A stretch of 64,000 nucleotides of DNA from Escherichia coli (GTDB lineage Bacteria; Pseudomonadota; Gammaproteobacteria; Enterobacterales; Enterobacteriaceae): assembly GCF_003334335.1 (NCBI RefSeq), contig NZ_QOWQ01000009.1; one strand, 5' to 3'. The notes below the pieces were generated by a model that saw only the letters and a program-made list of their open reading frames with translations, did no database searches and was not told the origin of the DNA. A program made the position numbers and the translations under genes. Positions 55,265-56,005 of this stretch are shown one piece after another. Every line of letters begins with the position of its first letter. Position 1 is the first letter of the stretch.

Positions 55265-56005
55265 ATGTTAGATCAAGTATGCCAGCTTGCACGGAATGCA
55301 GGCGATGCCATTATGCAGGTCTACGACGGGACGAAACCGATGGACGTCGTCAGCAAAGCGGACAATTCTCCGGTAACGGCAGCGGATATTGCCGCTCACA
55401 CCGTTATCATGGACGGTTTACGTACGCTGACACCGGATATTCCGGTCCTTTCTGAAGAAGATCCTCCCGGTTGGGAAGTCCGTCAGCACTGGCAGCGTTA
55501 CTGGCTGGTAGACCCGCTGGATGGTACTAAAGAGTTTATTAAACGTAATGGCGAATTCACCGTTAACATTGCGCTCATTGACCATGGCAAACCGATTTTA
55601 GGTGTGGTGTATGCGCCGGTAATGAACATAATGTACAGCGCGGCAGAAGGCAAGGCCTGGAAAGAAGAGTGCGGTGTGCGCAAGCAGATTCAGGTCCGCG
55701 ATGCGCGCCCGCCGCTGGTGGTTATCAGCCGTTCCCATGCAGATGCGGAGCTGAAAGAGTATCTGCAACAGCTTGGCGAACATCAGACCACGTCCATCGG
55801 CTCTTCGCTGAAATTTTGCCTGGTGGCGGAAGGGCAGGCGCAGCTGTACCCGCGCTTCGGACCAACGAATATTTGGGATACCGCCGCTGGTCATGCTGTG
55901 GCTGCAGCTGCCGGAGCGCACGTTCATGACTGGCAGAGTAAACCGCTGGATTACACTCCGCGCGAGTCGTTCCTGAATCCGGGATTCAGAGTGTCTATTT
56001 ATTAA
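55265..56005 (+). CDS. cysQ: 3'(2'),5'-bisphosphate nucleotidase
   Basis: 246 aa, [22 protein letters not shown], inositol-monophosphatase motifs ([12 protein letters not shown]). Confidence 0.95.

Follow-up and report, generated by a model that had tools for sequence, protein, structure and literature searches.

An ancestral convergent overlap of cysQ and ytfJ, interrupted by ytfI in K-12, is probably retained in an Escherichia coli contig

Structure of the cysQ–ytfJ junction

The window is the whole stretch of E. coli DNA that was analyzed, 64,000 nucleotides of contig NZ_QOWQ01000009.1; over 20 kb it matches many complete genomes, ML35 and UMNF18 among them, at 100% identity. The features at its cysQ–ytfJ junction are listed in Table 1. 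The identities of both genes are secure. CysQ scored 523.4 bits against NCBIfam NF008182/TIGR01331 (cutoff 379) over residues 1-246 of 246, and YtfJ scored 306.8 bits against TIGR01626 (cutoff 151.1) over residues 1-183 of 184 model positions. Direct reading of the sequence showed that the plus strand of cysQ ends in GTG TCT ATT TAT TAA and that ytfJ, on the minus strand, ends in CAT AAA TTA ATT AAT AAA TAG, with its stop at 55995-55997 in plus-strand numbering. The shared nucleotides encode (S)-I-Y-stop of cysQ in one direction and N-K-stop of ytfJ in the other.

Table 1 Features at the cysQ–ytfJ junction of the window.
Feature	Position	Strand	Description	Basis
cysQ (246 aa)	55265..56005	+	3'(2'),5'-bisphosphate nucleotidase; stop TAA at 56003-56005	ORF list, NF008182
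ytfJ (185 aa)	55995..56552	-	YtfJ-family periplasmic protein; C-terminus …HKLINK-stop	ORF list, TIGR01626
11-nt tail-to-tail overlap, CTATTTATTAA	55995..56005		Common to cysQ and ytfJ	Sequence
Unoccupied insertion point	56005..56006		ytfI segment begins after base 56005 in K-12-type genomes	Ungapped comparison, megablast
Weak hairpin, CTGAATCC-G-GGATTCAG	55973..55989	+	Inside cysQ codons 237-242	Pattern scan
Hairpin, GUGCAGCA…UGCUGCAU	56013..56039	-	Last ytfJ codons	Minus-strand fold

The original prediction that cysQ and ytfJ converge with an 11-nt overlap agreed with the ORF coordinates, and the overlap was confirmed as a real feature of the window. The same 11-nt overlap is annotated by PGAP in 6/6 sampled E. 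coli genomes lacking ytfI, and the junction sequence of all six of these empty alleles equals that of the window. As was also predicted, ytfI is missing from between the two genes: the ORF list contains no intervening reading frame, and a tblastn search with YtfI returned no match in the window, which represents the empty allele.

Tail-to-tail overlaps can arise since a stop codon reads as a sense codon on the opposite strand (CTA, TTA, TCA). Like other short convergent overlaps in bacteria, that of cysQ/ytfJ involves a few nucleotides at the 3' ends, but at 11 nt it is longer than the commonest class, 4 nt, and is unusually stable across the whole family.

Comparison with K-12

The gene order in MG1655 and K-12 derivatives is cysQ, ytfI (312 aa, plus strand), ytfJ, which bears out the statement that K-12 carries an additional gene at this position. 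Alignment across the locus showed that the K-12 junction differs from that of the window by an insert of 1,212 bp, which carries ytfI and extends from directly after the cysQ stop up to the ytfJ stop. In the ungapped comparison, homology passes through the cysQ stop, breaks, and restarts near 56019, ~ 14 nt into the ytfJ 3' end and within its last codons. The megablast junction query splits at query position 506, corresponding to window position 56005. K-12 YtfJ has 184 residues and ends in …QKLLK-stop, one residue shorter than the window protein. A single tail form, unlike that of the empty alleles, is common to 6/6 sampled occupied alleles.

Comparison of window positions 56006-56019 with loci L003, L007 and L001 showed that ytfJ has the tail TTAATTAATTTATG (…KLINK-stop) in empty E. 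coli alleles, as against GAGCAACTT (…KLL(N)K-stop) in alleles that carry ytfI and in other species of Escherichia. The difference is a cluster of GC-to-AT changes in the empty E. coli alleles. Since other Escherichia have the GAGCAACTT tail, it is the occupied allele that keeps the more ancestral-looking tail.

Window and K-12 diverge by 1.3-2.6% over three aligned blocks totaling ~ 27 kb. A local recombination tract around the site was considered and rejected, as this divergence holds throughout the aligned blocks with no local signal.

This polymorphism has been published before, and thousands of RefSeq genomes carry an annotation of the empty junction. In Higashi et al. (2016, PLoS Genet; PMC4720273, S10 Fig), ytfI was presented as an insertion specific to K-12, strains SE11 and SE15 lacking it. 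The locus and polymorphism are the same as those reported here, SE11 and SE15 resembling the window in lacking ytfI; in contrast to the K-12 case of that study, the window carries the empty allele. The same work showed that ytfI is bound by H-NS and that H-NS binding reaches cpdB, cysQ, ytfJ and ytfK only with ytfI present (PMC4720273). The present analysis adds the exact boundaries of the insert and the difference in the ytfJ tail, together with the polarity of the indel, the allele frequency, the age and constraint of ytfI, and a negative result for an embedded terminator.

Frequency of the two alleles in E. coli

A 1-kb query spanning the window junction matched 5,421 complete E. coli genomes. 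The cysQ/ytfJ junction was uninterrupted in 3,797 of these (70%), and in the remaining matching genomes the query was split exactly at the cysQ stop. The K-12 1,212-bp segment itself was found in 1,623/5,426 complete E. coli genomes (30%), its carriers including K-12, O157:H7, O145, APEC and ETEC strains. The suggestion that ytfI is probably lineage-specific or a K-12 insertion was correct, with one refinement: the segment is AT-rich, is inserted into an ancestral overlapping junction (see below) and has been published as an insertion, but it is not restricted to K-12. Distances computed from the flanks placed ytfI-positive and ytfI-negative genomes intermingled rather than in two separate clades.

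Ancestral state of the junction

The polarity of the indel was determined with an outgroup set in which each GTDB species with YtfJ was represented by a single genome, giving 80 loci in which cysQ, ytfJ and their stops were located. The 3' ends of the two genes overlap in 74/80 of these species-representative Enterobacteriaceae loci, which shows that the overlap did not come about by chance in the strain of the window. The overlap is 11 nt in 40 loci, 7 nt in 28 and 4 nt in six; the junction is interrupted by an insert in the other six. Overlapping loci include those of Escherichia whittamii and other Escherichia lineages, Citrobacter, Salmonella enterica subsp. arizonae, Klebsiella, Raoultella, Kosakonia, Enterobacter and Lelliottia. 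With 74/80 outgroup loci overlapping, the overlap is taken as ancestral for the family, and the state with ytfI as derived. The best explanation, considered highly probable, is that the window carries the ancestral, unoccupied cysQ/ytfJ allele, and that the absence of ytfI reflects retention and not loss.

The series of events that best fits the comparison would begin with the insertion, in an Escherichia ancestor, of a 1.2-kb AT-rich segment containing the ORFan ytfI and two strong hairpins exactly at the overlap. Such an insertion would have left CysQ intact and given YtfJ a slightly different tail, one residue shorter. Both alleles, empty (~ 70%) and occupied (~ 30%), are still segregating in E. 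coli, with K-12 representing the occupied state. An individual lineage could have regained the empty allele by homologous recombination instead of keeping it continuously, because the ytfI insertion seems older than E. coli and the flanking haplotypes are intermingled.

Properties and age of the ytfI segment

The GC content of the ytfI segment is 29-39%, compared with 50-60% in the flanks. Homologs of YtfI were found only in Escherichia and Shigella when 5.8e9 clusters were searched by word index. With HMMER, run in full on 1.8e9 representatives, only fragments of the same Escherichia family and one 38-residue match (E = 8e-4) were returned. No Pfam family matched YtfI even at E <= 10, and no NCBIfam family matched. 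Marginal, partial PADLOC and PHROGs matches (Cas6b, E = 8e-4 over 40 residues; phrog_3250, E = 2e-3) were treated as noise. The AlphaFold2 model of YtfI had a mean pLDDT of 44.6 and was too poor to use. The dN/dS of ytfI was 0.12-0.30, as expected under purifying selection, and by these sequence comparisons ytfI is judged a real gene, an ORFan of Escherichia only.

A 69%-identical ytfI ortholog, at the same site and with the same derived YtfJ tail, was identified in L006, a genome labelled E. coli whose flanks differ by 6-10% from E. coli. Synonymous divergence (dS) between K-12 and L006 was 0.70 for ytfI, 0.66 for cysQ and 0.59 for ytfJ. Because its dS against L006 equals that of the flanks, the insertion appears to be old; these values suggest that it predates the split between the E. 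coli and L006 lineages, both alleles having since persisted or been exchanged.

The length of ytfI varies among strains (303, 312 or 319 aa). The gene is frameshifted in ETEC1747 (L095). In ETEC1738 (L091:2501-3794), an IS1 element stands in place of most of the ytfI segment, and ytfJ, which it has also truncated at the 3' end, carries a pseudogene annotation.

Several origins of the segment were considered. Neither terminal inverted repeats spanning its ends nor a transposase was found in the K-12 segment, and with no clean target-site duplication either, a transposon, IS-type or other mobile-element origin was rejected. The segment had no phage match. A plasmid origin was also rejected, the sole "plasmid" matches being records of 0.65-4.9 Mb that are mislabelled chromosomes. 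Both K-12 junctions retain a copy of the ancestral overlap motif CTATTTATTGAG, each at 9/12 positions. These copies are compatible with a duplication of the overlap at insertion and at most weakly suggestive of one; both are constrained by coding.

Other inserts at the same junction

As a side observation, independent insertions of other cargo have hit the same junction in E. albertii, Citrobacter youngae and Kluyvera. A different insert of ~ 1.5 kb and 33% GC separates cysQ from ytfJ in E. albertii (L008:5552-7063) and in "E. coli" SCPM-O-B-7615 (L092:3505-5008), whose cysQ is only 86% identical to that of the window. The product of the E. albertii-type insert is a pentapeptide-repeat protein of 385 aa, which weakly resembles the T3SS effectors PipB, PipB2 and SopA (E = 4e-5 to 3.5e-3, far below cutoffs). 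In C. youngae ATCC 29220 (L044:5549-7682), a 2.1-kb insert encodes a radical SAM/SPASM enzyme together with a TIGR04222 membrane protein whose C-terminus has a CGGSSCGG repeat, and a direct duplication of 31 nt from the 3' end of ytfJ flanks the insert. The Kluyvera insert (L061:5549-6463, L062:5549-6464) is ~ 905 bp with 55% GC and encodes a 291-aa homolog of DacA-like serine D-Ala-D-Ala carboxypeptidases. The K. intermedia locus (L069:5552-5630) has just a 71-bp spacer with a hairpin.

This situation is similar to chromosomal integration hotspots between core genes, where one core-gene junction holds different cargo in each taxon. It differs in that the cysQ|ytfJ inserts consist of one or two genes and no integrase, tRNA or IS ends were detected. 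A speculative reading, considered rather unlikely, is that the overlap is a preferred site at which one- or two-gene cargo without a recognizable mobility gene lands repeatedly, and that insertion would duplicate the overlapping stop-codon region so that the flanking genes survive. Its cargo would be ytfI in Escherichia, the effector-like pentapeptide-repeat protein in E. albertii, the radical-SAM/SPASM pair in C. youngae and the PBP-like hydrolase in Kluyvera. Under the same reading, the ytfI polymorphism would be a balanced state of long standing, perhaps older than E. coli, that is kept by selection on an Escherichia-only ORFan recruiting H-NS onto its neighbors.

Transcription termination at the overlap

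The pattern scan reported CTGAATCC-G-GGATTCAG as the only terminator-like site at the window junction. This hairpin has a 7-bp stem with 3 GC pairs and a T-rich tail behind it (T at 14 of 26 positions, 55990-56015), making it a candidate weak intrinsic terminator for cysQ that is unsupported as a selected element. Folding of the hairpin region was no better than that of shuffled sequences (z = +0.95). In a recoding test, the last 14 cysQ codons were compared with 300 synonymous recodings per locus at 80 loci; the mean MFE was -7.0 kcal/mol for the real sequences and -8.0 kcal/mol for the recoded ones, and 0/80 loci reached p <= 0.05. The hairpin was not conserved, its register differing between Escherichia and other genera and the structure being absent in several Citrobacter. 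A conserved or selected terminator embedded in cysQ was rejected, the recoding, shuffle and conservation results all being against it.

Two hairpins were obtained in the minus-strand fold at the junction (z = -1.27, with 25/200 shuffles as good), neither followed by a U run, and the pattern scan reported no terminator-like site on that strand. The one listed in Table 1 is followed by an A/U-rich stretch and is not a canonical terminator. The symmetry of a bidirectional terminator, a U tract on both strands, was not found; on the minus strand the hairpin is followed by GAACGACUCGCG. Rfam detected no known RNA at the junction, the sole match being ES239 upstream of cysQ. By comparison, the K-12 insert contains two strong hairpins, one right after the cysQ stop (z = -3.99) and one just beyond the ytfJ stop (z = -2.91). 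The statement that the convergent overlap leaves no space for separate terminators is literally true of the window, where there is only the weak hairpin inside cysQ codons, neither conserved nor beyond recodings and shuffles.

Since the junction lacks both intergenic DNA and a strong hairpin, either transcript would have to continue into the antisense of the neighboring gene. Beyond the cysQ stop the RNA is rich in C and poor in G (GC skew -0.21 to -0.30), and untranslated RNA of this composition is the kind of substrate on which Rho acts. Transcripts of cysQ may stop partly at the weak hairpin and the U-rich overlap, while the remainder, together with ytfJ transcripts, may be ended by Rho on untranslated C-rich antisense, by head-on polymerase collision, or by both. 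It is likely that readthrough in the window is stopped by Rho or by polymerase collision.

Collision-assisted termination of convergent gene pairs has been described (Wang, Ju, Liu et al., bioRxiv 10.1101/2022.10.23.513370). The bidirectional terminators of that study share with the present locus a convergent pair and a palindromic hairpin near the gene ends. In contrast to them, the predicted cysQ/ytfJ hairpin lies in coding sequence, is weak, has a U-rich tail on one strand only, and is neither conserved nor better than recoded controls.

A functional role for the conserved overlap, in which transcriptional interference or antisense 3'-end pairing would link expression of cysQ to that of ytfJ and the hairpin would be a selected bidirectional terminator, was considered improbable. 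Retention of the overlap in 74/80 species and the position of a terminator-like hairpin just upstream of it are consistent with such a role, and convergent pairs can use hairpin-positioned polymerase collisions (bioRxiv 10.1101/2022.10.23.513370). However, the length of the overlap varies (11, 7 or 4 nt), inserts of 71-2,120 bp are tolerated in six lineages, and cysQ and ytfJ lie 1.2 kb apart in ~ 30% of E. coli. The hairpin, besides lacking a T run on the minus strand, is no stabler than its recodings and is missing from several Citrobacter.

Retention versus loss of ytfI

Secondary loss, in which the window lineage once had ytfI and the overlap is a deletion scar, was judged very improbable. 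The age of ytfI, with a dS against L006 equal to that of the flanks, and the decay of the gene in some strains (the ETEC1747 frameshift, the ETEC1738 IS1 deletion and the variable length) are in favor of loss, but the empty junction matches that of 40 outgroup species in its 11-nt overlap, its frame and its C-terminal residues. Furthermore, the ytfJ tail of the empty allele, TTAATTAATTTATG, differs at several positions from the insert-flanking tail, GAGCAACTTTTG, and the empty allele therefore cannot have arisen by simply excising the insert in its present form. The only genuine deletion observed, that caused by IS1 in ETEC1738, destroyed the ytfJ 3' end rather than restoring it. An assembly or annotation artefact, meaning a wrong stop or start call or a collapsed assembly, was refuted, with virtually no probability left to it and no point found in its favor, as CysQ and YtfJ both fit their family models end to end, the window is identical over 20 kb to many complete genomes, and the junction is contiguous in the same way in 3,797 complete genomes.

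The comparison shows the K-12 reference to be the derived state at this locus. Expectations based on K-12, namely the presence of ytfI and of separate terminators for cysQ and ytfJ, are not transferable to the ~ 70% of E. coli with the empty allele, and the same applies to the spreading of H-NS over cpdB-cysQ-ytfJ-ytfK (PMC4720273). The finding is otherwise ordinary and matters little beyond bookkeeping. The locus does offer a clean natural allele pair for the study of transcription ends in overlapping convergent genes with and without dedicated hairpins.

Additional features of the window

A 9.4-kb stretch between rplI and ytfB (window positions 36767-46207) has no counterpart in K-12, where only yjfZ and a truncated TetR pseudogene lie between these genes. 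The annotation of the identical ML35 record shows an intact TetR/AcrR regulator and eight genes in this stretch, and names a 3-ketoacyl-ACP reductase, a sugar-phosphate isomerase, an enoyl-CoA hydratase, a CoA transferase, an FAD oxidoreductase and a TRAP transporter. The Rfam match to the sRNA ES239 (RF02756) lies at positions 55076-55198 on the plus strand and scored 154.5 bits against a gathering score of 62; it sits in the divergent cpdB/cysQ intergenic region, which is the cysQ leader.
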